Source: Candidatus Eiseniibacteriota bacterium
GTDB lineage: Bacteria; Eisenbacteria; RBG-16-71-46
DNA: 64,000 nt
Reading direction: 5' to 3'
Assembly: GCA_963707915.1 (NCBI GenBank)
Contig: OY970178.1
Span: 3,360,001-3,424,000, forward strand
A program made the position numbers and the translations under genes. This document shows positions 4,397-26,540 of the stretch, in pieces. Below the pieces are notes generated by a model. That model was not told the origin of the DNA, made no database searches, and saw only the letters and a program-made list of their open reading frames with translations. The number at the start of each line of letters is the position of its first letter. The stretch's first letter is position 1.

Positions 4397-5190
4397 TCGC
4401 GGCGCGTTCTGCGTGAGAGAGCCGGAAGCCACTGATTGAACTCGTCGACTTGCTCTTGAGTGGCCCCCATATCCGCGAGCCGACTCACAAAGCTCGCGAA
4501 CATGGAGAGGACGGTGTCTATGGAAGGCGGCGTGCTCAAATAGTCGGCACCAGGCAATACGATGTCCGCCTTGAGGAGGACCTTGGTGAGCTTCGTCTCG
4601 ACAAGATGCGGATCAAAAGGGGCGATGTTGACGCAGTGAAGGTCAAGAGCGATCATGATAGTGCGGAATCTGCTGAGATAGGTGTGAAAGCCCGTGGCTT
4701 CGTGGCGGTGAATGCATTTCACCATATTGCGGAGGATGGGGAACGTCTCGTAGAAGATGAGGTTGATAAGGTCCCGACGCCAGGATGAGTTGGTGGCTAC
4801 AAAGTCTGGGAAGTGCTGGGCGAAGTATGCCGCACCGGCCTCGTTTAGAAAGACCATCTTGCGAGCCATTGGCAGGGGCGCAAAGGTAAAGGGACTGTTG
4901 AAGAACACTTCAGCCGACGAGCTGCTGCGTTGAAGAACGGTAATGCGGAGGCCGAACCCACGCGAGAGATACGGAGCAGGGACGACAGCATCCGGCATGG
5001 CGATGCTAACATGTTGACAGAACGCCTTCATGACGAGGATGAGGTCGGCATCGTCTGAGAATGCAAATAGATCGAGGTCCGACAGGGGGTCAGTTTCAGC
5101 CCGAGCGGAGGAGCCGCCCACTGCGACTGCCTGCACCTGAGGAATGGTGGTTAGGCAGTGAAGAAGTGAATCGAAAAACGGTGTGTGCAT
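4393..5190 (-). CDS. Pol-beta-type nucleotidyltransferase with C-terminal helical domain
   Basis: VGGSSAR...DPLSDLDL (GS..DxD); RBS-like GAGGG upstream of ATG 5190. Confidence 0.8.
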   Translation of the reverse strand: MHTPFFDSLLHCLTTIPQVQAVAVGGSSARAETDPLSDLDLFAFSDDADLILVMKAFCQHVSIAMPDAVVPAPYLSRGFGLRITVLQRSSSSAEVFFNSPFTFAPLPMARKMVFLNEAGAAYFAQHFPDFVATNSSWRRDLINLIFYETFPILRNMVKCIHRHEATGFHTYLSRFRTIMIALDLHCVNIAPFDPHLVETKLTKVLLKADIVLPGADYLSTPPSIDTVLSMFASFVSRLADMGATQEQVDEFNQWLPALSRRTRRD

Positions 5191-12796: not shown

Positions 12797-13148
12797 CTGG
12801 GCTAGTTATGTCCAGCCACTGCCATTCGAATGGGGCTGTCCCTCGACTGAATCACCCACAGGGCTGTCGGATTCTCGATGGCCCCGTCTTCACTTTCGAC
12901 GCCCAAGGCCGCTCGGATGCAGTTGACGAATGCCTCAAGACGTGGCTAAATAACTGTATCATCTAGGCTTACTGCATCTCTGGATTGCCGTTCATCTGCC
13001 TTCAGTTGTTTCGGTCGCTCGCGCGCACGGTCCTCTCCGGAAGCCGCGCGCCGGGCAGAACCACGGCTTGATCCATGACGCGACGCCTCCGACGTCGACT
13101 TCGCGCAGGGGTGCAGGTCTGCCACCTGAGACCTGCCCACTACCTTCT

Positions 13149-15521
13149 ATGACCTTGAGCGAATCCGATACCCGCGCCAAACTGATCGATCCCGCCCTCC
13201 ACGCCCGTGGCTGGACGGAGGATTTGATTCGCCGTGAGGAAACAGCCGGCGCAATCGAAATCATCGACGGTCGCCCACGCCGGCAGGCCAAAGGCCGCGT
13301 GGACTACACCCTGCGGATCAAGGTGAACCCGGACACACAGCCTGTCGCAGTAGCCCTCATCGAGGCGAAGGCCGAGCACCTGCACCCTGGCCATGGCCTC
13401 GAGCAGGGTAAGGGCTACACCGCCGGGAAGCGGCTCAACGTGCCCTTCGTGTTTTCGTCCAATGGGCACCTGTTCGTGGAGTTCGACAACTTCACGGGCC
13501 TGACGAGTGATCCCCGCCAGCTGAGCGCGTTCCCAACGGTTGAGGATCTCCGTGCCCGTTACGAGCAGGGCATGGGCTTCAGCCTTGGCTCACCCGCGGC
13601 GCGTCCGCTCATCACGCGCTACGTCGGCGGCGAAGCTACCCGCCGCTACTACCAGGACGCGGCAATCCGCGCTGTCTTCGAGAAGATCGCCCGCGGCGAG
13701 AAGAAGGCGCTGCTGTCGCTGGCGACTGGCGCGGGCAAGACCTTCATTGCCGTGAATCTGCTCAAGCGTATCGCCGACGCCGGCATGCTCCGTCGGGCGC
13801 TCTTCGTCTGCGATCGCGACGAGCTCCGCAGCCAGGGGCTCGGAGCGTTCCAGAATGTCTTTGGCTCCGACGCCGCCCCGGTATCGGCCGGCAAGCCGCA
13901 GAAGAACGCCCGCATCCTCGTCGCCACCTATCAGACCCTCAACGTCGACTCGGTGGATGCGGACGCGAACTTCCTGACCAAGAACTACCCCGAGAACTAC
14001 TTCAGCCACATCATCATCGACGAGTGCCACCGCTCCGCGTGGGGCAAGTGGTCCCTGGTGCTGACCCGCAACCCAGACGCCGTCCAAGTCGGACTCACCG
14101 CGACGCCGCGGACGATCCAGTTCACTGAGAAGAGCAAGGAAGCTGAAGCCGACGCACAAGTTTCGGCTGACAACCTCCGCTATTTCGGTGAGCCGGTCTA
14201 CGAGTACGACATGAGTCAGGGTATCGAGGATGGCTACCTCGCGGCGTGCGAGATCGTGCGCCGGGACATCTTCTTCGACACGAAACAGACGAGCGAGCGC
14301 GAGGCTGGCCTCACTCAGGAGGATCTTGCCGGCAAGGCAATCGTTGACGCCAAGACGGGAGAGACCCTGTCCATCGGCGAGGCCCGTGCCCGCTACGACG
14401 CCACGAGCTTCGAGGATAGGCTCCTCCTGCCAGAGCGCGTGAAGGCGATGGCCGAGGACTTCTTCGCACACCTACTCGCCACCGGCGGCCCAGAGCAGAA
14501 GACAATCATCTTTTGCGCCCGCGACCGGCACGCCGACGACATCGCGACTGCCCTGAACAACCTCTACGCGACCTGGTGTAGCCGGGAGGGGCGCGAGCGA
14601 CTGGACTCGTACGCCTTCAAGTGCACCGCTACGAGCAACGGCGGTGACTACCTACCAGACCTGCGTGGCGGATCACGCCATCACTTCATCGCGACCACGG
14701 TGGACCTGTTGACCACAGGCGTCGACGTGCCGAACGTGCGAAACATCGTCTTCTTCAAGTACGTCCGTTCACCGATCGCGTTCTACCAGATGGTCGGTCG
14801 CGGCACCCGCCTGGACCCCGCCACCGGCAAGCTCATGTTCCGCGTCTACGACTACACCGACGCGACGCGGCTGTTTGGCGAGGAGTTCATCACGAAGCTC
14901 CCGACCCCGCGTGGCCCGATCGGACCGGGCCCGGAACCACCAGAGCCCCCTGAGCGCACGCTGCTCGTCGAGGGATTCGACGTTCGGGTCACTGACGCCG
15001 GCCGCTACATCCTGACCATGGTTGACGGGAAGGCAGTGCCCGTGACGGTTGAGGAGTACAAGGAACGCGTCGCTGCCCGCCTCGTGGAGGAGGCGAAGAC
15101 GCTCGACGAGTTCCGCAAGCGCTGGATCGCACCGGAGGAGCGCAGGGAGATGCTGGGGCGTCTGCCTGATGCTGGTCGTTCGGCCATGTTGGTGCGCGCT
15201 CTTGAGGACATGGCGGACTACGACCTCTACGACGTACTCGCGGATCTTGGATACGGGATGGCGCCACGCACGCGCCTCGAGCGCGCAGACTCGTTTGCCT
15301 ACAAGCATCAGGAGTGGCTTGCGCAGCTTCCGGACAAGGCGTCCGCGACTCTCAAGGCGATCGCTGGGCAATTCGCCGACGGCGGAACGGATGGGCTCGA
15401 GAATCCGCAGGTATTCCAGACTCCTGCCGTCGTGCGTGCCGGCGGCCTGCCGGCACTCCGGGTGATTGGTCGCCCCGCTGAGGTTCTGCGCGAGACTAAG
15501 CAGAGGATGTTCGCCGCATGA
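13149..15521 (+). CDS. hsdR: Type I R-M restriction subunit (EcoAI/EcoEI-like)
   Basis: SESDTRAKLIDP, VDY..IEAK, LATGAGKT, DECH, QMVGRGTR. Confidence 0.92.
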   Translation: MTLSESDTRAKLIDPALHARGWTEDLIRREETAGAIEIIDGRPRRQAKGRVDYTLRIKVNPDTQPVAVALIEAKAEHLHPGHGLEQGKGYTAGKRLNVPFVFSSNGHLFVEFDNFTGLTSDPRQLSAFPTVEDLRARYEQGMGFSLGSPAARPLITRYVGGEATRRYYQDAAIRAVFEKIARGEKKALLSLATGAGKTFIAVNLLKRIADAGMLRRALFVCDRDELRSQGLGAFQNVFGSDAAPVSAGKPQKNARILVATYQTLNVDSVDADANFLTKNYPENYFSHIIIDECHRSAWGKWSLVLTRNPDAVQVGLTATPRTIQFTEKSKEAEADAQVSADNLRYFGEPVYEYDMSQGIEDGYLAACEIVRRDIFFDTKQTSEREAGLTQEDLAGKAIVDAKTGETLSIGEARARYDATSFEDRLLLPERVKAMAEDFFAHLLATGGPEQKTIIFCARDRHADDIATALNNLYATWCSREGRERLDSYAFKCTATSNGGDYLPDLRGGSRHHFIATTVDLLTTGVDVPNVRNIVFFKYVRSPIAFYQMVGRGTRLDPATGKLMFRVYDYTDATRLFGEEFITKLPTPRGPIGPGPEPPEPPERTLLVEGFDVRVTDAGRYILTMVDGKAVPVTVEEYKERVAARLVEEAKTLDEFRKRWIAPEERREMLGRLPDAGRSAMLVRALEDMADYDLYDVLADLGYGMAPRTRLERADSFAYKHQEWLAQLPDKASATLKAIAGQFADGGTDGLENPQVFQTPAVVRAGGLPALRVIGRPAEVLRETKQRMFAA

Positions 15522-16156
15522 CCAGGCACAAGCCACTCTTGCCAAAGGCGCTCCCTACTGCTCATGATCTCCCAAAGGGCTGGTGGTGGGCTGATCTCGG
15601 AAAGGCCCTGGAGCAGCGCAAGCAGTTCATCCTCGTCGAGGACGAAGAGCGCTATCAGCGCGTCACGGTGCAGTTGCACGGCCGCGGCATCTTGCCCCGA
15701 GATCATGTGCTTGGAAAGGCCATCAAGACAAAGAAGCAACAGGTCGTTGCGGCTCATGACTTCCTTGTCGCAGAGATCGACGCGAAGATGGGCGGCTTTG
15801 GAATTGTCCCGGCTTCTCTCGCGGGAGGAATCGTCAGCAGCCACTACTTCACCTTCGCGATCAACACTGACCTCCTTTTGCCGGCCTTCTTGGAGGTCTT
15901 CATTCGAACGGGGTTCTTGACGCGTGCCATTCTCGTCCATGTTCGTGGCTCGTTGAACTACGCCGCGATCCGGCCTCGCCACGTCCTTGGCATACAGTTT
16001 CCTTTTGCAGAGCCAACGACTCAAGAAACGCTTATCGCCCAGATCAAGCAGGTGGATCTAGCGCGCGCCGCCCTCAACGAACAACTAGGCATCCTGGATG
16101 CGATGCCTGCCGCCTTCATTAGAGCCGCCCTCGGTGGCGCTGTTCCGAACCCATGA
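15518..16156 (+). CDS. hsdS: Type I R-M specificity subunit, half size (single TRD)
   Basis: LPKGW.W..LG start, PF..P..Q..I helix; between hsdR and hsdM with ATGA overlaps. Confidence 0.85.
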   Translation: MTRHKPLLPKALPTAHDLPKGWWWADLGKALEQRKQFILVEDEERYQRVTVQLHGRGILPRDHVLGKAIKTKKQQVVAAHDFLVAEIDAKMGGFGIVPASLAGGIVSSHYFTFAINTDLLLPAFLEVFIRTGFLTRAILVHVRGSLNYAAIRPRHVLGIQFPFAEPTTQETLIAQIKQVDLARAALNEQLGILDAMPAAFIRAALGGAVPNP

Positions 16157-17682
16157 CGACCTACCCCATCAACGGCAAGACGCCAGTGGACCAGGCGGCA
16201 GTCAATGCCGCCATCAAGGCGATTTGCGACATCATGCGCAGATCCAACTGTGCAGGTGCCCTGCAATACGTCCCTGAGCTTACCTGGATTCTCTTCCTGC
16301 GAATCCTCGATGAGCGTGAGCTTCGCGAGACAGAAGAAGCAGAAGCCCTCGACGTTCCTTTTGAGCCGTCACTAGAGGCTCCATACCGCTGGCAGGATTG
16401 GGCGGCGCCTAACGGAAGGAAGCGCCAAGAACTTCAGAATGGCGCTCTCGGTGAGTTCTTTGGATTTGTGAACGGCAAGCTCCTGCCACATCTTCGGGGG
16501 CTGAAGGACCGAGCCGGAGCGACGCCTCGTCAGAAGGTCATCAGTGAAGTCATGTCCGGCGTCGAGCGGACGCGGATTGACACCGAGCGCAACTTCCTCG
16601 ATGTGCTGGACAAGGTAAACGAGATCAGTTCCGAAACCGCTGATCCGACCCACATGTTCACTCTGTCGCAAGTGTATGAGGGGTTGCTTCTGAAGATGGG
16701 GGAGAAGGGTAACGACGGCGGTCAGTTCTTCACCCCACGGGAAGTCATTCGCGCAATGATCCAGGTTGTTGACCCCAAGGTTGGCGAGACGATCTACGAC
16801 CCAGGCTGCGGCACTGGCGGCTTTCTTGCGCAGTCGTATGAGTACATGCGCGCACATCTGGGATCAAAGGCAACGGCCGCGCAGCTTACAGCGCTCAAGC
16901 GGAGGACGTTCTTCGGGCGGGAGAAGGACGACGCCATCTTCCCGATTGCCCTGGCGAACTTGGTGCTTCACAACATCGATGAGCCGCACATCTGGCACGG
17001 CAACACATTGACCGGCGCTGAGACATACGGTGGCCTGTACGCTGACGCGCCCTCAACGTATGACGTGATCTTGATGAATCCACCGTTCGGCGGGAAGGAG
17101 GGCCAAGAGGCTCAGACGCGCTTTGCCTATAAGACCGGCGCAACGCAGGTGCTCTTCCTTCAACACGTCATCGACAGCCTGAAGCCTGGCGGTCGGTGTG
17201 GCATCGTGCTGGATGATGGCGTCTTGTTTCGTGTCGATCAGATGGCATTCATTCAGACAAAGCGCAAACTGCTCGACGAGTGCGAGGTACGCTGTGTAGT
17301 CAGTCTGCCCGCTGGCGTGTTCACTGCGGCAGGGGCGGGCGTCAAGACTGATCTGGTCTTCTTCACGAAAGGCCAGCAAACCAAGAAGATCTGGTACTTC
17401 GACCTCTCGGAAATGAAGGTCAACAAGACTGCGCCACTAACGCTCGACATGTTTGATGACTTCTTCAAGCTCCTGCCCAGCCAAGCGGACAGCGATCACA
17501 GTTGGACTATCTCGCGCAAGCAAGTAGAGGCTAACAACTTTGACCTGAAGGCGATCAATCCACGGATCAAGGCGCAAGTGGACATTCGGACGCCCGGGGA
17601 GCTACTTGGACTGTTCGATGAAGAGGGGCAGGAGGTGGCGGAGGCCATCGCGGAGCTGCGGCGCCTGAAACGTGGGAAGTAG
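16153..17682 (+). CDS. hsdM: Type I R-M methyltransferase subunit
   Basis: GQFFTPR, YDPGCGTGGFL, NPPF. Confidence 0.95.
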   Translation: MTTYPINGKTPVDQAAVNAAIKAICDIMRRSNCAGALQYVPELTWILFLRILDERELRETEEAEALDVPFEPSLEAPYRWQDWAAPNGRKRQELQNGALGEFFGFVNGKLLPHLRGLKDRAGATPRQKVISEVMSGVERTRIDTERNFLDVLDKVNEISSETADPTHMFTLSQVYEGLLLKMGEKGNDGGQFFTPREVIRAMIQVVDPKVGETIYDPGCGTGGFLAQSYEYMRAHLGSKATAAQLTALKRRTFFGREKDDAIFPIALANLVLHNIDEPHIWHGNTLTGAETYGGLYADAPSTYDVILMNPPFGGKEGQEAQTRFAYKTGATQVLFLQHVIDSLKPGGRCGIVLDDGVLFRVDQMAFIQTKRKLLDECEVRCVVSLPAGVFTAAGAGVKTDLVFFTKGQQTKKIWYFDLSEMKVNKTAPLTLDMFDDFFKLLPSQADSDHSWTISRKQVEANNFDLKAINPRIKAQVDIRTPGELLGLFDEEGQEVAEAIAELRRLKRGK

Positions 17683-17695
17683 GCGCACAGGGACA

Positions 17696-19216
17696 CTAAC
17701 GGAGGCGTGGCAACGGGGTCCGCACCCGGTAGTACCGTTGATTCCCGCGGCGCACTTCGATGAGGTCTTCTCTGATGGCGCCCCGCAGTCGACCAATCCG
17801 TTTTCGTGCCGCCTCCAGACTGCGGATCCCCTTCAGGTCGTGCTTGACATCGTAGCTGCGAGCTTCGTGTTGGCCGTCGGCCTGACGATCGAGTAGATAC
17901 CGAAGCAGCTCGACCTCTGAGCGACGGATCTTGCTTACGGCCTCTCCCGTGCTCAGGTCGCAGACGGTCCCGCTCTGTGGACGGACCAAGTGGCTCGCCA
18001 GCTGTATCTCCGGCTCCTGCAAGTTGCGGAGTTGAAGCACTAAGTCCGTCACGGCCCGCTGGAAGTCCTTGAGCCGGAATGCCTGCTGGTATGGATGCGG
18101 GCCCGTGAGCTCCACAACACGGTGGAGTGCTTTCTCCAACTTCTCGCGCGTTGAGTAGAGCATGCGCCTGCTGAGGTAGCGGGGCTCCCTGAGCAGGTCC
18201 TCAGCCAGTTGCCGGTAGAGGATCGCTTGGGGCGGGTCGAGGGACACGATCAGCGCCATGGCGCGGCCGAAGAACTCCCGTGCTTTCTCGAGGTCCCCCT
18301 CGTGACCGCGCTCAAGGTGCAGCCGGGCCAAATCCTTCAGCGGGTAGACCATCATCCTCTTCATGGACATCTGCTCGGCGATGGCGAGCGCAGCCCGGAA
18401 GTCCTCCTCGGCGCCGCGCAAGTCGCCGCGAGCGAATCGAAGGTCAGCGCGGCCCATGTAGGCAGCGTGCAACGTTCCCGGCATCGGTTCCTCGAGACAG
18501 CCTGCAATCACGGCCTCGTAGATTGCGGCGGCTTCATCGAGCTTACCGAGCGTCTTGAGCACACCGGCGCGACGCTCATCGATCGTGCGCACCAAGCGGG
18601 GAGCGTTCAGCGGTAGCGCCAGTTCGCGGGCGCGCCGCTGCCACTCCAGGGCCTCGTCCGGGCGCTCAAGGACTGCCGACAGCCGCCCGACGTCCGACGC
18701 CGTCGTCGCGGCGCGGCGCCACTGTTCGGTTTCGATGGCGCGACGGTGTGCCTCCACCATCCTCGCACGGGCGCGTTCAAAGTCGCCCTCAAGCTCGTAG
18801 CGGTGGGCGAAGAGCGCCTCCACGTCAGCCCCGCGACTGGCAAGCTTGGGACTCTTCTGAATCAGGCGTTGCAGTTCCTCCAGCGCCTGGCCGCCTTCAG
18901 CGAAACGAGCCTGCTGGTGAAGCATGAAGGCGCGGTGGTGGTAGGACGTGTAGATCTGCCAGGCCGGCGCGCGCTTCGCGGCGCTGTGACGCTCAAACGC
19001 CCCGAACAAGCGCAGAGCATCTGTGTATTCCCCGCGCTGGTATGCCCCTTCCGCTCGCACCCACAGCTCGTCGGCGGACGGTCCCGGCGGTTCCCCGGCC
19101 GACAGCGTGGACGCCAAGCGCATCACGGCGTCCGAGTCGCCGCGGTGGGCGGCGGCCAGAGCCTTCGTGATGGTGGCCTTGGGGCTGGTGGGCATGGTCA
19201 GTATCTCCACATCCAT
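17696..19216 (-). CDS. TPR-repeat protein with C-terminal winged-HTH, putative regulator
   Basis: Multiple TPR-like repeats (G.Y.DAL, GDFERA, GKLDEA, GDLRGA); C-terminal SEVELLRYLL...IGRLRGAI..YYRV; start may be 19195. Confidence 0.72.
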   Translation of the reverse strand: MDVEILTMPTSPKATITKALAAAHRGDSDAVMRLASTLSAGEPPGPSADELWVRAEGAYQRGEYTDALRLFGAFERHSAAKRAPAWQIYTSYHHRAFMLHQQARFAEGGQALEELQRLIQKSPKLASRGADVEALFAHRYELEGDFERARARMVEAHRRAIETEQWRRAATTASDVGRLSAVLERPDEALEWQRRARELALPLNAPRLVRTIDERRAGVLKTLGKLDEAAAIYEAVIAGCLEEPMPGTLHAAYMGRADLRFARGDLRGAEEDFRAALAIAEQMSMKRMMVYPLKDLARLHLERGHEGDLEKAREFFGRAMALIVSLDPPQAILYRQLAEDLLREPRYLSRRMLYSTREKLEKALHRVVELTGPHPYQQAFRLKDFQRAVTDLVLQLRNLQEPEIQLASHLVRPQSGTVCDLSTGEAVSKIRRSEVELLRYLLDRQADGQHEARSYDVKHDLKGIRSLEAARKRIGRLRGAIREDLIEVRRGNQRYYRVRTPLPRLR

Positions 19217-19430
19217 TCTACCTCTCCTGCCGTTCGGCTCCATGTGGACAAGACATGCGTGTAGGTCCGTTGTCCAGTCGAGCCGCCGTACACCCCGACA
19301 CTGGATCTCGGAGGGCAAGACACCGAGGTCCAGCTCAAGCCGGGGTGAGCTCCCGCGACGGCGTGACGCACACGACCGTCCGCAGCACCGCGAAGACGCG
19401 CTTCAGAAGTCCCACACGAGGGTCACGACC

Positions 19431-19496
19431 ATGAACGCGAACAGGGTGCTGGTGGGCGACGACCGGGATCTGATTCCGGCTGGCGGCTTCCACTAG
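19431..19496 (+). CDS. 21-aa micro-ORF MNANRVLVGDDRDLIPAGGFH
   Basis: GAGGG RBS 8 nt upstream; GC hairpin after the stop; first ORF before the E2-like and JAB-E1 genes. Confidence 0.55.
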   Translation: MNANRVLVGDDRDLIPAGGFH

Positions 19497-19503
19497 CAGT
19501 AGC

Positions 19504-19551
19504 TCCCGGGCCGGGTGGCGGCACTCCGCCGTCGCCCGGCGGCCCGGGAAC
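19504..19551 (+). terminator. GC-rich hairpin after the micro-ORF
   Basis: CCGGGTGGCGGC-ACTCC-GCCGTCGCCCGG flanked by TCCCGGG/CCCGGGA; no U-tract. Confidence 0.45.
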
Positions 19552-19583
19552 CTGGGCGCGGTTCTAATCGGGAGGGCATTGAG

Positions 19584-19946
19584 TTGTGGTGGCTGATCGG
19601 TCTGCTAGCGGCGCTGGCGGCATCCACCCAAGACAGCACCCGGAACACGGGGGTCAGCGCAGCGAGAAGCCCAGTGTCTGATAACTCGCGCCTGTTGACC
19701 TACCGCTCCCGCGACGGCCGCTCCTTCTTCCGGTTCCGCTTCTCGCCATTTGGCGCCGGCGTGCGGATCTTCATCCTCGAGTTCCCAAATCCACAGATCG
19801 GCTCCTGCCACGTGCTGCACGACGACCGCGGCGCGGCCTACATCTGCTGGTCACGGGCCATCAACTCCCTGTCTGACGCGAAGGCGGTCGCAGCGCTCTG
19901 GGCCGAGGCAACGCTCGTCTACCAGCGCACCGGCCACGTCTTCTAA
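19584..19946 (+). CDS. Small E2/UBC-like protein with hydrophobic N-terminus
   Basis: GGAGGG RBS + TTG; beta-rich segment, then H-V-L...G..YICW and helix W...T..Y..TG; TAATG coupling to the E1 gene. Confidence 0.55.
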   Translation: MWWLIGLLAALAASTQDSTRNTGVSAARSPVSDNSRLLTYRSRDGRSFFRFRFSPFGAGVRIFILEFPNPQIGSCHVLHDDRGAAYICWSRAINSLSDAKAVAALWAEATLVYQRTGHVF

Positions 19947-21478
19947 TGGAGGCTACCAACTTGATCAAGTTGAGCATCGTTTCGCACGGCCTCGTCTTGA
20001 AGGAGGGGGGATTCGGCCCTGCTGTGGCAGAGCCCGCCCAGGTGATGCGGTTCACCGCATCCGCGCACCGTCAGATCATGGGCGCGATCGGCACGAAGGA
20101 GCCCGAGAACGGGATGCCGCTCGGTGGCGACCCGGGCGACGGCATCGTCCGCCACGTCATCTTCGACGACAGCGGCGAGCGGTCCAGCGGCACCTACTCG
20201 CCCGACCATGTCCGCCTGACCGCACTGCTGGACGATTGGTGGAGGCCTTCGGGGATCCGCCTGCTGGGGTTTGTCCACTCGCATCCGGGCCGATTCGCGC
20301 GCCCTTCCGACGGGGATCTGAAGTACGCCGGCGAGATCCTCGAGGCCAACCCGCACCTCAACCGGTTCCTGATGCCCATCGTGACCGTTGAGCCAAAGCC
20401 GGTCGTGCACCCGTTCGTCGTGGTCCGGACTGCCAGGGGCGTCGTGGTGAAGCCGGCTGTGCTGGAGGTCCTCGACGAGGTGCTGGTCGCGCCGGGGGAG
20501 AAGGCCACGCCGCCGGTGAAGACCGTGACCAAGACGGAGTCGCCCCGTGCCATCCGTGAGGCGACCTTCCAGCGGGTGGTTAGGGCTTACGACCTCCCGC
20601 ACCTGCGCTACTGCCGCGTGGTCGTTCCTGGTGATGGGGGTGCTGCTGGCTACGTCGAGGATCTCGTGCGGGCGGGCATCCACGACCTAGTGCTCATTGA
20701 TCCCGATGTTGTCACTGCCACGAACCTCGCCACCCAGCAGGTCTACCGCCGAGACCTGGGCCGGCCAAAGGTCGAGGCGCTCGCCGACCGACTGCGTGAC
20801 ATCAACCCTGCCGTCGAAGTGCTGGCCATCCAGCGGGACTTTAATGAGTTCACCGACGCCGAGATCGAATCGTTGCTCGGGCTCGACTGCGCCCGACCCC
20901 CGATCCGCACGCTCGTGTGCGGCTGCACCGACAACTTCTACGCCCAGGCGCGCGTCAACCGCGTCGGCCTGCAGTTCGGCGTGCCCACGCTCTGTGCGCA
21001 GGTCTACGCCGAGGGCCGGGGCGTCGAGATCACCTTCACCTACCCGGGCATCACCCCGGCATGCCATCGCTGCGTCCTGCGGTCGCGCTACGACGCCTAC
21101 CTGAAGGAGGGCTACACCAACACCGTGACGTCCGACGGCACGCCGGTCGGCTGCACGACACGGCTGAACGCGACCAAGTTCTTCGTGGCCATGGCCTTGC
21201 TGCACCACGGCACGGCGCATCCGCGCTGGGGCCGGACGCTGGAGCGCATCGGGAACCGCAACCTGGTGCAGCTGCGGCTTGACCCCGACTTGGAACTCCC
21301 GGTGTTCGACCGCGTGCTGGCCGGAGACAGGGCTCGCATCTTCACGGACGAGGCCGTGTGGCTCCCGCAGTTGCCCGAAGGCCGGGCTACCGGGCGCGCC
21401 CCTTGTCCCGACTGTGGCGGTACGGGCGACCTGCGTGCGGCCATCGGCTCAATCCCGGACACCCGGCTGCCCCGATGA
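19946..21478 (+). CDS. JAB/MPN+ peptidase fused to ThiF/E1-like adenylyltransferase
   Basis: JAMM motif HSH-x7-S-xx-D; GDGGAAG, LIDPD.V..TNLATQ, GRPKV, CTDN, Zn pairs CHRC and CPDC. Confidence 0.9.
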   Translation: MEATNLIKLSIVSHGLVLKEGGFGPAVAEPAQVMRFTASAHRQIMGAIGTKEPENGMPLGGDPGDGIVRHVIFDDSGERSSGTYSPDHVRLTALLDDWWRPSGIRLLGFVHSHPGRFARPSDGDLKYAGEILEANPHLNRFLMPIVTVEPKPVVHPFVVVRTARGVVVKPAVLEVLDEVLVAPGEKATPPVKTVTKTESPRAIREATFQRVVRAYDLPHLRYCRVVVPGDGGAAGYVEDLVRAGIHDLVLIDPDVVTATNLATQQVYRRDLGRPKVEALADRLRDINPAVEVLAIQRDFNEFTDAEIESLLGLDCARPPIRTLVCGCTDNFYAQARVNRVGLQFGVPTLCAQVYAEGRGVEITFTYPGITPACHRCVLRSRYDAYLKEGYTNTVTSDGTPVGCTTRLNATKFFVAMALLHHGTAHPRWGRTLERIGNRNLVQLRLDPDLELPVFDRVLAGDRARIFTDEAVWLPQLPEGRATGRAPCPDCGGTGDLRAAIGSIPDTRLPR

Positions 21479-21561: not shown

Positions 21562-22167
21562 ATGCGCCGCCAGTACGCCCTCATCTATGCCGACCCGCCG
21601 TGGCGCTACAACAGCAAGCGCCACGGCTACGGTGGCGCCGAGGACCATTACCCGACGATGGCCTTGGAGGACATCAAGGCCATCCGGGTACCGGCGGCTG
21701 ATGACTGCGCGCTGTTCCTTTGGGCCACCATGCCCTTGCTCCGACAGGCGTTCGAGGTCATCGACGCCTGGGGCTTCAAGTACAAGACCACGGCGTTCTG
21801 CTGGATGAAACAGACGAAGTCCGGCGTCGGCCTGGTCACGGGCCTTGGCTTCTGGACCAGGTCGAACGCCGAGGTCTGTCTGTTGGCGACACGGGGACGG
21901 CCGCGCCCCGTGTCCCACCGAGTCCACTCGGTCGTGATTGGTCCACGTCGACGTCACAGCCAGAAGCCAGACGAGGTCCGGGAGCGGATCGTGGAGCTGA
22001 TGGGCAACGTGCCGCGGCTGGAGATGTTCGCCCGGTCGCGGACGCCCGGCTGGGACGCCTGGGGCAATGAGGTCAAGAGCTCAGTCCAGATCCAGGTGCC
22101 CGGGCTGGACAGCGCCGGGCGCACGGAGTCTGAACGGAGGTGGCGCCGGTGCTCGATCGCCTCCTGA
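21562..22167 (+). CDS. MT-A70 family N6-adenine methyltransferase
   Basis: IYADPPW, LFLWAT, WGF.YKT, TRSNAEVCL, HSQKP, LEMFAR. Confidence 0.93.
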   Translation: MRRQYALIYADPPWRYNSKRHGYGGAEDHYPTMALEDIKAIRVPAADDCALFLWATMPLLRQAFEVIDAWGFKYKTTAFCWMKQTKSGVGLVTGLGFWTRSNAEVCLLATRGRPRPVSHRVHSVVIGPRRRHSQKPDEVRERIVELMGNVPRLEMFARSRTPGWDAWGNEVKSSVQIQVPGLDSAGRTESERRWRRCSIAS

Positions 22168-22520
22168 AGCTGATCGTCACCCTGACCCTGCTGTTCTTCC
22201 TGCTGCAGGCGGTCATCGGAGTCCTGGTCCGCGTCCTTGACGCGGCCCTCCATGGGGCCGCCTCCGCCCTCGGGCACGCTGGGAACTTCCTCGGCAACGT
22301 TCTGGTGATCGTAGTGGAGGTCATCTTCTTGGTCGGGCTCATCGTCCGAGGGGCGCAGTTCGTTGCCAACCGGGATCCTCGTGCAGCTCGGGAACGAGCG
22401 ACACGAGATCGAGCCGTTCGCCAGCGTGTCCGCCGTCCGACCGAAGGCGTGCCGCCGGTCGAGAGTCACGCCGAGGTGCTGGACGACCCCGACCCGGCTA
22501 TCGGGGAGGAGCGCGAATGA
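22140..22520 (+). CDS. Two-TM membrane protein of the mobilization module
   Basis: Two hydrophobic segments; ATGA overlap with the coupling-protein gene. Confidence 0.65.
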   Translation: MAPVLDRLLKLIVTLTLLFFLLQAVIGVLVRVLDAALHGAASALGHAGNFLGNVLVIVVEVIFLVGLIVRGAQFVANRDPRAARERATRDRAVRQRVRRPTEGVPPVESHAEVLDDPDPAIGEERE

Positions 22521-24070
22521 TGGTCGAGCATCTCGCCGCCCAGCTGCGCCGGCTCCTCAAGGGCTCCGAAGCGGACACCGCGAGGCGTTGGCACGCCACC
22601 ACCGAGCGCGCGCGGAACGCCGACGCTCACGCCCGCCGCGACGCGTTTCTTCGCCAGATGCGCGCCACGCCCGGGGACGGGAAGGTGCTGCTCGGCCGCG
22701 CGCAAGCGCGCGAGGGCGAGTTCCAGTGGTGCGGCATGCCGCTGCCGACACTCTGCTCCATGCACCTCGGCATCTCTGGCGCGACTGGCACGGGCAAGAG
22801 CTTCATGGTCGCATCGCAGCTCTTTCAGCTCGTCACGCTCGGCGTGCCGGTCATCCTCACGGACATGAAGTCTGAACTCGCCGACCTGATGTTGAACGTG
22901 GTCGTCCCCGCGGTCGTTGCCCGCGGTATGGAAGATCTGATCGACCGGGTGCGCGTCGTTCGTCCATTCGATGCAGGGCGCGTGCCCTTGCTCCGTCTGA
23001 CTGAGCCTGAGCCTCGAGTCTCTCGGCAGATCCAGAGCATGAACATCGCCCAGGGCCTGAGCGAATCCGTCGGCGAGGGGCTGGGTGTGCGCATGTTGCG
23101 GGCGATGTTGCCCATGGCGGGCTTGGCCGTGGAGCGCAACTTGCCGCTCCCGGTGTTGACGGACTGGCTGCGCTCGCCTGAGGTATTCGCGCGGGCGGCA
23201 GCCTCGTCTTCCGATCCGATCGTCCGCTCGTATGCTCTTCACGAACTGCCGCGAGAGAACCGTAGCTCGCTGGACGCGCTTCGGGCCCGGCTCGACCTGC
23301 TCTTCCACCTGCCCGAAGTGCGCGATGCGTTGTCCGCTCCGCGCTGCCTGTCGTTCGATGACGCTCTCGACTCGGGCGTGACCATCCTGGACTTCGGCTC
23401 GCCTCCGGGCGGCGCCGAGGACGCCATGAAGTTCATCGCCGGTCCGGTCGCGGGCCGGTTAGGGCGCGCTATCCTCTCGCGGCAGGTGTCGGATAACACG
23501 CCCCCCGCGGTCGTCGCGTTCGAAGAATTCCAGCAACTCCTCAGCTCGTATCAGGTCGAGATGTACAAGCGTCTACTGGCGCTTTGCCGTTTCAAACGCG
23601 TCTGTCTGTGGTTCTCGAACCAGCAGCCGGCCCAGATCGCTGAGGCAGACCGGACGCTGCTGCGCATCCTGCGCACCAACCTCGGAGCCGAGTGCATCTT
23701 CCGCTCGTCGGTCGAGGACGCCCGCACTCTGTCCGAGGGGCTCTCGACGCGTTCCGCCGACGAGACGTTGACGCAGGCGCGCAGCCGAGTCGTCGAAGAG
23801 ATCGCAACGCTCCCGAAGCGTTCGTTCTTCTTCTGGTTGCGAGATTCCGCGTTCGGGCCACAGCGGCTACAGAGCCCGCGCGTCAACATCGGTGCGCTCA
23901 AGGCGTCTGCGGCGTCGCTCACGCCCGAGCAACGCGAGCGCATTCGCCTCGGCACCGTCTCGATCGAGCGGCCGGTGGACAACCCGTCGCCTACGCCCGC
24001 GCCCGAACCGGATCCCCGGGTTGCGCCACTTCCCCCACAGAAGCGCCGCCGGGCGCCGCGGCTGGGGTAG
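22517..24070 (+). CDS. VirD4/TraD-like coupling ATPase
   Basis: ISGATGTGKS, TDMKSE, VAFEEFQ, LCRFKRV..SNQ..AQ; adjacent to relaxase. Confidence 0.8.
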   Translation: MMVEHLAAQLRRLLKGSEADTARRWHATTERARNADAHARRDAFLRQMRATPGDGKVLLGRAQAREGEFQWCGMPLPTLCSMHLGISGATGTGKSFMVASQLFQLVTLGVPVILTDMKSELADLMLNVVVPAVVARGMEDLIDRVRVVRPFDAGRVPLLRLTEPEPRVSRQIQSMNIAQGLSESVGEGLGVRMLRAMLPMAGLAVERNLPLPVLTDWLRSPEVFARAAASSSDPIVRSYALHELPRENRSSLDALRARLDLLFHLPEVRDALSAPRCLSFDDALDSGVTILDFGSPPGGAEDAMKFIAGPVAGRLGRAILSRQVSDNTPPAVVAFEEFQQLLSSYQVEMYKRLLALCRFKRVCLWFSNQQPAQIAEADRTLLRILRTNLGAECIFRSSVEDARTLSEGLSTRSADETLTQARSRVVEEIATLPKRSFFFWLRDSAFGPQRLQSPRVNIGALKASAASLTPEQRERIRLGTVSIERPVDNPSPTPAPEPDPRVAPLPPQKRRRAPRLG

Positions 24071-24083
24071 GGAGGACTCTTGC

Positions 24084-24401
24084 GTGCGAGAACTCCAAAC
24101 TGTGCTCCGGCTTCTGCGAGCCGTCTTGGGGATTGCCCTGTGGTGCGCGGGCACGGCGTGGCTCGGTGTCACGACGCTCTGGCGTGCGGGCATGTTGCTT
24201 TCGCGATTCAAGGCCATCTCCGCCCAGGTACGGCTCTGCCCCCGTGGGCACGAGGTGCCGGTCTACAGGCTGTGGGACTGCCACTGCGGCAGCCGAGTCG
24301 AGGGCTGGGCATTCGCGCCCTGCTCGATCTGCCGCGAGACGGCCGGCTACGTCCCATGCCCGACCTGTGGCCTGCCCGTGAGGAATCCACTCCTGCCATG
24401 A
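24084..24401 (+). CDS. Small TM + Zn-ribbon protein
   Basis: GGAGGA RBS; hydrophobic N-terminus; CPRGH, CHC, CSIC, CPTC. Confidence 0.65.
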   Translation: MRELQTVLRLLRAVLGIALWCAGTAWLGVTTLWRAGMLLSRFKAISAQVRLCPRGHEVPVYRLWDCHCGSRVEGWAFAPCSICRETAGYVPCPTCGLPVRNPLLP

Positions 24402-25186
24402 CCCCGCTCGTCCGTCGTCAGCCCCGCCATCACCGTCGCCGCGGCGTCGCCGTTCAGCTCACTGAGCGAGACGGAGCGGTGCTCCACGCCCTTGGTCGCT
24501 TCAGGCTTGCCCGGACGTCAGACCTCGTGGCCTACGCCTTCGCCGGAGTCCGGAAAGACACGGCCGCAGTCCGGCTCCGGCGGCTGTTCGACGGCCGCTT
24601 CCTGGCCGTGCTGCCGCCCGAGCAGGGCAAAGAGAACGTCTACCGCTTGGGGCCGGCCGGGAAGGTCCACCTCGCCGAGGAGGGAGTCGGTGTCGGTCGT
24701 GTTCCCCGTGGAGGACTCGAGCACCACCTCGCCATCGTCGAAACCTGGGTCGCCGTCGCCGGGCTCGACCGCCTCGAACTCGAGCGCGCTCTGCCCGACT
24801 GGGAGCTTCGCGAGCAGTTCAATACCGCCGAGCTGCACGTCGTGCCTGACCTCTTCCTTCTCGTCCGCGTTGGCGAACGGCAACACGCCGTCGCCGTCGA
24901 GGTCGACCGTGGCACCGAGTCGCTGGCCGTCCTCAACCGAAAGCTGGAGGCATATCGCTCGCTCTGGGGGCAGGCGCCTGGGCTGTTCGGCTACCGGCAG
25001 TTCGGCATCGCGCTCGTCTGCCACACCCCGGCCCGTCGTGCCCAGCTCGCCTCCGCACTCAAGAGAGCATGGGTTGTTCCGCATGTGTTGTGGACGTGTT
25101 CTGAAGGGCCGAATACCGCTGTGCATCAGCTCATTCAGGGATTGCTGGCTCCCCTTGAGGCCTCCCCTTACCCCAAGGGGACCTGA
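24398..25186 (+). CDS. Replication-relaxation family protein (putative relaxase)
   Basis: LTERD..L..L.RFR, HHLAI, VPD.F, AVEVDRGTE. Confidence 0.85.
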   Translation: MTPLVRRQPRHHRRRGVAVQLTERDGAVLHALGRFRLARTSDLVAYAFAGVRKDTAAVRLRRLFDGRFLAVLPPEQGKENVYRLGPAGKVHLAEEGVGVGRVPRGGLEHHLAIVETWVAVAGLDRLELERALPDWELREQFNTAELHVVPDLFLLVRVGERQHAVAVEVDRGTESLAVLNRKLEAYRSLWGQAPGLFGYRQFGIALVCHTPARRAQLASALKRAWVVPHVLWTCSEGPNTAVHQLIQGLLAPLEASPYPKGT

Positions 25187-25192
25187 CCAGTC

Positions 25193-25432
25193 ATGCGATC
25201 CGAGCGAGCAGAGCCTAACGACGAAGGTCGTGCTCTTGATCCGGCTGAAGCCGAGCGCGAACGAACTCTGCCGCACCTCCTCACGCTACCCGAGGTGGCG
25301 GTGTTCCTGAGCGTCAGCCCAAAGACCGTCCGGCGGTTGGTCAGTCGCGGTCTGCCGTGCGTACGTCTGGGCCGGGTGGTACGTTTCCGGCAGGCGGACC
25401 TTCTCCGGTTCGTGGAGGCACGGAAGGAATAG
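25193..25432 (+). CDS. xis: Excisionase-like HTH protein
   Basis: LLTLPEVAVFLSVSPKTVRRL...RLGRVVRF; directly before int. Confidence 0.85.
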   Translation: MRSERAEPNDEGRALDPAEAERERTLPHLLTLPEVAVFLSVSPKTVRRLVSRGLPCVRLGRVVRFRQADLLRFVEARKE

Positions 25433-25435
25433 CCG

Positions 25436-26416
25436 ATGCCAAAACGAATTCGGAACTTGGTCAAGCGCGGGAAGACGTACGTCTACCGCTACAAGGTGAA
25501 CGGCAGGACGGTCAGGCGAGTCCTCGGGGATGACTACGAGGAAGCTTGCCGACTGCTGCGCTCATTGAAAACCGATGTGACCCAGCCCGGTCCGGACGTC
25601 ACCGTCGAGGATGCCGCTCGGAGGTGGCTTTCGGGCTACGTTCCCACCGTGAGGCGCGAGCAGGACCAGCGTCTCGCGGCGCAGCGGGTCAAGGACTACC
25701 TCGTCCGCTGTCTGGGGTGCCTTCTGCTGCGGAAGCTCACCGGGGATCACGTCCGCGCCTATCGGCTGTGGCTTGAGAAGCACAAGCTGTCTGCGCAGTC
25801 GGTCAAGCATATCCTGTCTGATCTCCGGTGTCTGTTGAACTGGTGCGAGGACGTGGGGCTCACCGATCGGAGCGTCTTTCCCCGGCGCGTCCTTCCGAAG
25901 ATCCAGGAGCGGCCACCGGACCGCCTGACGGATGAGCAGGTAGAGCAGGTCTGCTCCCTGGAGGAACCGTACGGCTTCATTGCGCGGCTGCTCGTCTCCA
26001 CCGGAATTCGCTGGGGGGAGGCGGTGAGCGCGCAGGCGACCGATGTGCAGAACGGCTGGCTCGTCGTGCACCAGACCAAGAGCGGGAAGGTGCGACGCGT
26101 GCCCCTGACAGACGCGCTCGCGGCCCAACTGCGCTTGCGGGTGGGACGGCTGCTGCCGCTCCGCAACGCCGACGGCTTCGCGGTGCAGGTCCGGAAGCGG
26201 ACCGGCATCGAGGGGTTCCACGCGCACCAACTCCGGCACTCGTTCGCGTGCCGGTGGCTGGAGGCGGGGGGCAGCCTTGCGGCCCTGCAAGAGATTCTCG
26301 GGCACGCATCCATCGTGACGACCCAGCGATACGGTCGTCTCGGTGAGGCACATGTGTTGGCGGAAGCGCGGCGAATCCAGGGGCAAGGGGTCACATCGGG
26401 GGTCACACGAGGTTGA
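25436..26416 (+). CDS. int: Tyrosine integrase
   Basis: TGIRWGE, TKSGK.R.VP, HQLRHSFA, LGHASIVTTQRY. Confidence 0.95.
   Translation: MPKRIRNLVKRGKTYVYRYKVNGRTVRRVLGDDYEEACRLLRSLKTDVTQPGPDVTVEDAARRWLSGYVPTVRREQDQRLAAQRVKDYLVRCLGCLLLRKLTGDHVRAYRLWLEKHKLSAQSVKHILSDLRCLLNWCEDVGLTDRSVFPRRVLPKIQERPPDRLTDEQVEQVCSLEEPYGFIARLLVSTGIRWGEAVSAQATDVQNGWLVVHQTKSGKVRRVPLTDALAAQLRLRVGRLLPLRNADGFAVQVRKRTGIEGFHAHQLRHSFACRWLEAGGSLAALQEILGHASIVTTQRYGRLGEAHVLAEARRIQGQGVTSGVTRG
26387..26407. repeat. Direct repeat GGGGTCACA x2, candidate integrase arm-type sites
   Basis: 26387-26395 and 26399-26407, in the int 3' end near the tRNA. Confidence 0.5.
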
Positions 26417-26449
26417 CGAAACCTCTCTAAGTCGTGTAAACACGGCCCC

Positions 26450-26540
<91 letters not shown>

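Follow-up and report, generated by a model that had tools for sequence, protein, structure and literature searches.

The E1–E2 cascades of the Bil and Bub systems and of eukaryotic ubiquitination all move a β-grasp protein, whereas CBASS (an anti-phage signalling system based on cyclic oligonucleotides) moves the tail of an enzyme, according to the portions of three reports drawn on here (PMC1779556, PMC11601596 and PMC10557695). As described in the same portions, Type I Bub (6E.1) consists of BubAB, a fusion of a ubiquitin-like protein (Ubl) with an E2; BubCD, a fusion of a JAB domain with an E1; and BubE, a DUF6527 serine protease (PMC11601596; Iyer et al. 2006, PMC1779556, Table 1 row 6e), and the JAB domain of BubCD cuts BubAB after Gly229 and thereby frees the Ubl (PMC11601596). 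Here we report a locus in a 64,000-nucleotide (nt) stretch of a Candidatus Eiseniibacteriota genome (contig OY970178.1; hereafter referred to as the window) that encodes, in this order, a 21-residue peptide, an E2-like protein of 120 residues and a JAB–E1 fusion of 510 residues. We consider it fairly probable that these genes form a ubiquitin-type, three-part module in which a ribosomally made peptide of about 12 residues replaces the Ubl. The features of the module, in window coordinates, are as follows.

19418–19422, forward strand: ribosome-binding site (RBS) GAGGG of the peptide gene, 8 nt before the ATG, read from the sequence.
19431–19496, forward strand: peptide gene, 21 amino acids (aa), MNANRVLVGDDRDLIPAGGFH, one unit of GD[DE]..[LI]P.G[GTS][FW][HR].
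19513–19537, forward strand: 10-base-pair (bp) GC-rich hairpin between the peptide and E2-like genes (RNAalifold, 17 loci).
19570–19576, forward strand: RBS GGGAGGG of the E2-like gene, with GGAGG conserved across 17 aligned loci.
19584–19946, forward strand: E2-like protein, 120 aa, with a TTG start; homologues of 117–121 aa span its full length.
19946–21478, forward strand: JAB–E1 fusion, 510 aa, an open reading frame (ORF) overlapping the E2-like gene by TAATG.
20036–20479, forward strand: JAB/JAMM domain, residues about 31–178, with Glu54, His111-Ser-His113, Ser121 and Asp124.
20540–21478, forward strand: E1/ThiF adenylation domain, residues about 199–510, with the Pfam ThiF match and a GxGG motif.

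An earlier note on this DNA had picked out the micro-ORF with its RBS and downstream hairpin, and both hold beyond the window. A search for short ORFs upstream of JAB–E1 homologues, which that note had proposed, recovered the peptide ORF ahead of the E2-like gene in 22 of the 23 related loci with upstream sequence, including L021, L024 and L025, and the hairpin is kept in all 17 aligned loci. The spacer to the E2-like gene is 87 nt in the window and 79–90 nt in 18 of 18 loci (the window, one genome locus and 16 metagenome loci; for L008 and L012 the distance was taken to a partial match). A GAGG-type RBS occupies the corresponding place in related loci, and in L024 and L025 it reads AAAGGAGGTG. 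The peptide, the E2-like protein and the JAB and E1 domains, fused or adjacent, co-occur from about 90% down to about 44% JAB–E1 identity; at the lower end, L024 (44%) encodes the peptide MVAPLMPKLKGDEDGKKPLIPPGTFRR, and L025 carries JAB and E1 as separate genes. The set persists in more distant relatives that were found by profile only.

Among 20 aligned peptides, M1, P16, G18 and F20 are invariant, G9, D10, D11, D13, T19 and H21 are nearly invariant, and zero to two variable residues follow H21; conservation peaks in the last 13 residues. The two residues before the aromatic are GT in 18 peptides, GS in one and GG in one, namely that of the window. The GG tail in the earlier note is thus a peculiarity of the window among near relatives, although the micro-ORF itself is conserved, and the likeness that the note saw to the tails of MoaD and ThiS is limited to the Gly. 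In distant relatives, unlike the near ones with their GT, GG is the rule. Across the 13-codon core of 18 loci, the third codon position varies in 10 of 13 codons, the first in 6 and the second in 2, and pairwise codon differences comprise 405 synonymous and 207 non-synonymous ones; judged from these alignments, the peptide is under selection at the protein level.

Several relatives encode more than one unit. In L032, a low-GC planctomycete genome, the E2-like and JAB–E1 genes are preceded by a gene for 179 aa in which GDEELPSGGFRS is repeated in tandem as seven units (7.5 copies at a 36-nt period), with AAGGAG ahead of the ATG; its frame is annotated in the public record as protein P0382. L025 has two tandem units, GVDDIPAGSFH and GNDELPVGTWH, and P0383 is a multi-unit precursor with three exact motif matches. 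Units are also fused to the E2-like domain itself in four of the 265 E2-like family proteins scanned: P0384 has four to five [IL]P.GG[WF]R units followed by an E2-like domain (hhalign probability 98.9%, E = 1e-17), with only GGF kept at the junction; P0298 and P0338 have one and two units, respectively, before the domain; and P0341 has one unit between two domains. Four of eight regular-expression hits in the family were discarded since they lie inside the domain, in a ..G.[WY]R.YI strand, and P0385 (E = 1.3e-3), from a different Pfam family, was set aside as a low-complexity chance match. Because of the tandem units in L032 and L025 and the four unit–E2-like fusions, the peptide is, on sequence grounds, probably a substrate of the enzymes rather than a leader ORF, and the fusions mirror the layout of Type I Bub, in which a Ubl–E2 fusion is cut by a JAB–E1 fusion. 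The proposal in the earlier note of a substrate standing in the place of a Ubl is therefore strengthened by the conservation, the multi-unit precursors and the natural fusions.

The JAB–E1 protein retains the residues expected of both of its domains. In an alignment of 35 homologues that are 49–78% identical to the window protein, the JAMM site HSH-x7-S-xx-D is intact, with H111, S112, H113, S121 and D124 in all 35 sequences and E54 in 34. The E1 residues G229, G231 and G232 of the Gly-rich nucleotide loop, and R210, D252, D254, K275 and D329, are likewise present in 35 of 35, as are the zinc-binding CxxC pairs (C373, C376, C487 and C490), in agreement with the intact JAMM motif and two CxxC pairs read earlier. 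These four zinc ligands are the only conserved Cys residues of the E1 domain, so it has no conserved catalytic Cys. The earlier note had read the Cys at the MoeB position as apparently missing; the Cys it offered slightly downstream (Cys403, PVGC) occurs in one of the 35 homologues, and it is Ser396 of the crossover loop that is invariant (35/35). Position 390 is Tyr in 21 and Phe in 12 of the 35 sequences, and Tyr382 (33/35) and Tyr385 (32/35) both lie, in the model, in the helix that precedes the crossover loop.

By Pfam, the ThiF match scores 77 bits and the Prok-JAB match 24.6 bits, slightly below the cut-off of 25; Prok-JAB is above the cut-off in the relatives L032 and L033. An AlphaFold2 (AF2) model of the fusion has a predicted local distance difference test (pLDDT) score of 84.7, and its top Foldseek match is Citrobacter BubCD over both domains (E = 1.6e-15), the leading hits being five BubCD entries (E = 1.6e-15 to 5e-14). 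At the sequence level, profile matches of the E1 domain in the Protein Data Bank (PDB) are MoeB (the best, E = 6.6e-11), TcdA, UBA5, ThiF, MccB and PaaA; BubCD is unlisted by phmmer and hmmsearch against PDB sequences. PADLOC matches the E1 part only, to CBASS E1–E2 models. At least 659 homologues of the fusion were found; the single protein as query found no relative among genome contigs, and the alignment found none among viral contigs.

We also predicted the complex of JAB–E1 with the 21-aa peptide, as the earlier note had suggested. The median score was 0.40 (runs 0.02, 0.72 and 0.40), and the best control scored 0.00; contacts agree between runs at a level of at least 0%, and the pLDDT of the partner is 35 or more. 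Of 157 solved complexes, 116 reach the mark used for such predictions, as do 2 of 215 mismatched pairs, and scores of 0.60 or lower at the mark belong to only 18 of those 157 solved complexes and to both passing mismatches; the calibration set holds no protein shorter than 30 residues. The prediction lends weak support to the pairing of JAB–E1 with the peptide.

The E2-like protein comprises a hydrophobic anchor (residues 1–15), a low-complexity linker and a core (residues 33–120). Its length, the Cys codon at 19845 (Cys88) and the TAATG (19944–19948) that couples it to the 510-aa ORF, all read previously, are confirmed from the sequence. Close homologues number 114, of 82–153 aa, and the residues invariant in an alignment of 34 sequences include Tyr40, Phe51, Pro68, His76, Asp80, Cys88, Trp89, Trp106 and Glu108. 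His76 and Cys88 (both 34/34) are spaced by 11–12 residues and lie, in the model, after strand 4 and before the long helix, where E2 enzymes have their catalytic Cys some 10 residues past a conserved His of an HPN-type loop; Cys88 is nearly invariant in a wider set of 26 sequences as well. The AF2 model of the core has a pLDDT above 90 and shows a meander of three strands together with two short strands and one long helix. In a VIA-align comparison with 48,161 chains, the top five are all chains of the E2 fold (Z 6.4–4.6): CdnG-E2 (8hsb_B, Z 6.4 over 97 residues), the Cap2 E2 domain (7to3_A, 5.1), UFC1 (5.1), chain B of a Ubc13–Mms2 entry (protein unspecified, 4.9) and BubB (4.6), and most of the 50 rows are UBC, UEV or RWD folds. 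As a lead, PF26395 (E2-CBASS) is assigned to 17% of the members of one Atlas cluster of the family. An E2 fold is likely from these model comparisons, and we grade it no higher because the Z values are modest.

The E2-like family as a whole contains 823 clusters at 50% identity (profile, E ≤ 0.001), of which 366 remain at E ≤ 1e-10. In the subfamily of the window the N-terminus bears a short hydrophobic segment, in other members clear transmembrane helices precede basic residues, and the distant proteins of L032 and L033 have no transmembrane segment. Two or three tandem E2-like domains occur in many members (P0236, P0239, P0248, P0264, P0274, P0296 and P0318), and some of the copies are without the Cys, for example the second copy in P0236 and the first in P0248. 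We considered whether the C-terminal Phe, which is invariant in the E2-like protein, mimics the peptide tail, and rejected this idea, as extensions follow that residue in L024, L032 and L033.

The hairpin that separates the peptide gene from the enzyme genes (stem 19513–19522 / 19528–19537) has 169 of 170 cells paired in the alignment, with compensatory changes in 2 of its 10 pairs. The intergenic fold of the window has a free energy of −52.4 kcal/mol (z = −2.0), and in it GCUCCC (19502–19507) pairs with the RBS of the E2-like gene (19571–19576). Sequestration of the RBS by this post-stop segment was rejected; it occurs only in the fold of the window and is missing from the 17-locus consensus. 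The hairpin carries no U-tract, a scan of 19000–19700 for sigma-70 promoters and terminators was empty, and an Rfam search over 19100–19700 returned no family. On the upstream side of the peptide gene, a different, terminator-like hairpin with a T-run (AGCCCC...GGGGCTTTTT) is present in L001 at about 3785–3825, ending about 25 nt before the RBS of the peptide gene; it has counterparts at the matching place in L003, L005–L007, L011, L014, L016 and L017, and the window, L004 and L008 have different sequence there. A wetland metatranscriptome contig of 224 nt (X20) matches 19596–19819, within the E2-like gene, with three differences, and is the only piece of the module in the RNA libraries, with none over the micro-ORF. 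It hints weakly at transcription of a near-identical copy, and could reflect DNA carry-over; among the DNA contigs, those of relatives span most of the stretch.

These observations suggest a pathway of four steps. The JAB domain would cut the precursor at each unit, most likely after the invariant Gly and one small residue (G-G, G-T or G-S), and thereby remove the aromatic–basic dipeptide, FH in the window. This site is favoured because the position after G18 is only G, T or S and the aromatic that follows is invariant, because the junction of P0384 keeps GGF only, and because BubCD cuts after a Gly; the JAB domain could instead cut after the [FW][HR] pair. The E1 domain would then adenylate the new C-terminus and the acyl group would pass to Cys88 of the E2-like protein, either directly or by way of the invariant Ser396 of the crossover loop, as the E1 has no conserved Cys. 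Finally, the E2, which in this subfamily would be held at the membrane by its N-terminal anchor, would hand the peptide to an acceptor. It is close to an even question, tipping slightly to the negative, whether the peptide is the smallest ubiquitin-type modifier, with 11–12-residue units that the JAB protease would release, in the manner of polyubiquitin, from single, tandem or E2-fused precursors and that E1 would activate and the Cys of E2 carry to proteins or membrane components; under the same heading, ring closure would alternatively make it an E1/E2-made RiPP (a peptide made by ribosomes and modified after translation). Candidate roles for the module are defence, exclusion and control of the element that carries it, and any role in defence is a guess by analogy.

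Several points weigh against a peptide-based module of this kind. In most near relatives a Thr takes the place of the Gly before the aromatic, which would be unusual for a JAMM cleavage site or for an E1 pocket, and in the E1 domain the Arg of the MoeB NLQRQ motif (canonical NLxRQ) aligns with an invariant Thr263. The most distant relative, L033 (E = 7e-45), has no recognisable motif peptide; its peptide-gene place is taken by a 68-aa ORF with an RBS (4346–4552), which starts MHIEITG and belongs to no Pfam family. The evidence from P0384, P0298, P0338, P0341 and P0383 is at the level of protein sequence, and the three complex-prediction runs disagree and score weakly. For the E2-like protein, VIA-align states a typical best Z of 7–8 for models without a clear match, so the observed 6.4–4.6 falls within the range of unmatched models; a Foldseek search of the PDB with the model was empty at E ≤ 0.001, Pfam and PADLOC returned no hit, and the family profile found only chance tautomerase matches among PDB sequences (E about 1). 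The E2-like assignment of the earlier note is supported by the top five fold matches and the invariant His and Cys, and finds no backing from Foldseek.

The same genes could serve a RiPP-type pathway, in which the units are excised and the E1 adenylates their carboxylate for an intramolecular reaction or tailoring, such as head-to-tail or side-chain cyclisation; the Cys of the E2-like protein might then be an acyl carrier and the product a free small peptide, a signal or toxin, rather than a tag. Multi-core precursors are typical of RiPPs, and here they contain seven and two units, each unit with a nearly invariant starting Gly and conserved acidic residues; the hairpin sets the precursor gene apart from the enzyme genes, and the E1 domain has MccB and PaaA among its sequence matches in the PDB. 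A lasso peptide was rejected, as the acidic residue that forms the ring would lie too near the Gly. For microcin C, pantocin A, GRC and enterofaecin, ThiF-like enzymes with short-peptide substrates have been described, yet those described in the portion of the source consulted carry at their N-terminus a RiPP recognition element (RRE) (PMC12250964), where the present protein has a JAB domain. Furthermore, Pfam shows no transporter or immunity gene in the module, the unit–E2-like fusion mirrors the Ubl–E2 fusion of Bub, and the closest structure, BubCD, is a protein-conjugating enzyme. We therefore regard such a pathway as unlikely, at perhaps the level of a serious second option.

It is more improbable still that the motif regulates the E2-like protein or the E1, as a docking or pseudo-substrate element or a cleavable linker, with the C-terminus of another protein as the true E1 substrate, as for Cap2 acting on the CD-NTase tail in CBASS. 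Units fused to, or lying between, E2-like domains would suit such a role, as would the small protein's best fold matches, which include Cap2 and a CBASS E2, and the CBASS E1–E2 models as the sole PADLOC hits of the E1 domain. However, no partner in the module has a conserved C-terminus, the ends of the downstream membrane protein and zinc-ribbon ORF varying between loci, and such a role hardly accounts for a stand-alone precursor of seven tandem units. We give least credence, and very little, to a regulatory leader or arrest peptide, whose translation would, together with the hairpin, control expression of the E2-like and JAB–E1 genes while the peptide itself has no role. The ORF is short, its conservation is strongest in the last 13 residues, a conserved hairpin starts about 17 nt after the stop codon, and the post-stop segment can pair with the E2-like RBS in the window. 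This pairing is, however, outside the 17-locus consensus structure, there is no U-tract, terminator or Rfam family, and a leader would have no reason to occur in precursors of seven and two units or fused in frame to the E2-like domain. Our preferred reading remains that of a peptide modifier in the place of a Ubl.

Downstream of the module, the window contains, in order, an MT-A70 methylase, a membrane protein, an ATPase, a zinc-ribbon ORF, a Replic_Relax protein, an excisionase, an integrase and a tRNA-Ser gene. The parts of the element are as follows.

22140–26539, forward strand: integrative-element backbone, context rather than core (Pfam, ARAGORN).
22140–22520, forward strand: small membrane protein of the backbone.
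22517–24070, forward strand: HerA/FtsK/TrwB-like ATPase of the backbone (Pfam).
23892–24401, forward strand: zinc-ribbon ORF (C-terminal part), without a Pfam family.
24080–25186, forward strand: Replic_Relax protein (Pfam).
25193–25432, forward strand: HTH_17 excisionase (Pfam).
25436–26416, forward strand: tyrosine integrase (Pfam).
26450–26539, forward strand: tRNA-Ser (ARAGORN).

The ATPase and Replic_Relax genes follow the module in six of the seven loci with enough sequence (the window, L001, L026, L027, L028 and L033), the exception being L032; Replic_Relax is confirmed by Pfam in the window, L027 and L033, and is assigned from position and likeness in L001, L026 and L028. An integrase is seen in the window, L026, L027 and L028. 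The three module genes are therefore a unit of their own, usually carried on one kind of integrative element, and in most loci the module is in such a tRNA-associated element. No direct repeat of the tRNA-Ser end is present in 1–27000, so the far border of the element is unplaced. The small zinc-ribbon ORF (about 105 aa) is also found in L001 (7828–8145) and L028 (11051–11368); it is conserved, has four Cys/His pairs (CPRGH...CHCG...C..C...CP.CG), ends in GLPVRNP and overlaps both neighbouring genes, that of the ATPase at its end and that of Replic_Relax at its start. The MT-A70 type II methyltransferase gene (21562–22167; PADLOC MTase_II, E = 3.7e-64), between the JAB–E1 and membrane-protein genes, looks like an insertion into the element, because it is missing at that place in L001, L027 and L028.

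Upstream of the module lies a gene for a TPR protein, at 17696–19318 on the opposite (reverse) strand in the window and at 1146–2387 on the strand of the module in L001; it is a possible regulator or partner. Immediately before this gene in the window is a complete-looking Type I restriction–modification set (13068–17682) with an HsdR-like protein of 817 aa, a short specificity-like ORF without a Pfam family and an HsdM of 509 aa. A separate cassette stack (L036) is located in the same genome about 3 to 15 kilobases (kb) before the start of the window, about 29 kb upstream of the JAB–E1 gene. It encodes a patatin-like protein, a LexA/S24-like repressor and a large serine recombinase, as well as a weak SMODS hit ahead of a Cap15-type receptor (CBASS-like) and a DUF6791–ThiF protein followed by a DUF6527 protein, the layout of Type II Bub. 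This DUF6527 gene is the only PF20137 match of the genome, and the pair with DUF6791–ThiF indicates that a canonical Bub-type operon is present elsewhere in it. The statement in the earlier note that no Ubl or CD-NTase gene is nearby thus holds for the operon (Pfam), and it has to be set beside these CBASS-like and Type II Bub-like cassettes outside the window. The distribution of the module is sporadic: it is found in 4 of 206 genomes of the phylum of the window, in 3 of 401 sampled genomes of another phylum and in 1 of 37 in one order, and a genome search of the order of G341 found no further genome with it.

Full-text literature searches returned no description of a peptide in the place of a Ubl, with the supplementary tables of the Bub preprints, which might list such operons, outside their scope. 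The family is not rare, with 823 E2-like clusters and at least 659 JAB–E1 homologues, and neither the E2-like protein nor the peptide has a Pfam family. If the proposal is right, a dedicated modifier of about 12 residues would uncouple ubiquitination chemistry from the fold of ubiquitin, since an E1–E2 cascade would need only the tail and no β-grasp fold. This would bear on the origin of E1/E2 cascades, and would provide a very small, genetically encodable tag system.

ThiS- and MoaD-type carriers are β-grasp proteins for sulfur transfer that are not known to work with an E2, and the JAMM protein QbsD removes two residues after the GG of QbsE; the present JAB domain would resemble the latter in removing a dipeptide after a C-terminal Gly, exposing an end for adenylation by E1. 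MccB and PaaA carry an RRE or peptide clamp at the N-terminus and are not known to have a JAB or E2 partner. The ThiF-like RiPP enzymes (MccB with its 7-aa MccA, PaaA and GrcB) share with the module an E1-type enzyme and a very short peptide encoded upstream. They differ in that the partners here are of the conjugation-cascade type with no transporter next to the module, and in that GrcB has an N-terminal RRE, as stated in the portion of the source consulted (PMC12250964), in the place of the JAB domain.

Like CBASS (Type II Cap2/Cap3 and CdnG-E2), the module has an E1/E2/JAB set that would act on a C-terminal tail rather than on a β-grasp Ubl; its small protein matches the folds of CdnG-E2 and the Cap2 E2 domain best, and PADLOC assigns its E1 part to the CBASS E1–E2 models. 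By contrast, it contains no SMODS/CD-NTase or effector gene (Pfam and PADLOC), its E2 is separate from the E1 and its JAB is fused to the E1, where the Type II system has an E2–E1 fusion, and the presumed substrate is a dedicated small peptide.

Relative to Type I Bub, the differences include a sequence similarity to BubCD too low for it to be listed by phmmer or hmmsearch, the lack of DUF6527 (PF20137) among the operon proteins, and the N-terminal membrane anchor of the E2 in the subfamily of the window. BubB has a catalytic Ser (plus His/Asp) and no Cys, whereas Cys88 is invariant here (34/34), and the invariant crossover-loop Tyr of the Bub E1 has no invariant counterpart, Ser396 being invariant instead. 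Both systems have an N-terminal JAB domain fused to a homodimer-type E1 without a catalytic Cys, with BubCD as the best structural match, and a minimal E2, or likely E2, without C-terminal helices, with BubB among the top five fold matches. They also share the gene order of modifier, E2 and JAB–E1, and in some relatives the modifier is fused ahead of the E2 domain, as in BubAB. These fusions carry peptide units rather than β-grasp domains, and where the Bub Ubl consists of one to three β-grasp domains, the modifier here would consist of one or more units of about 12 residues.

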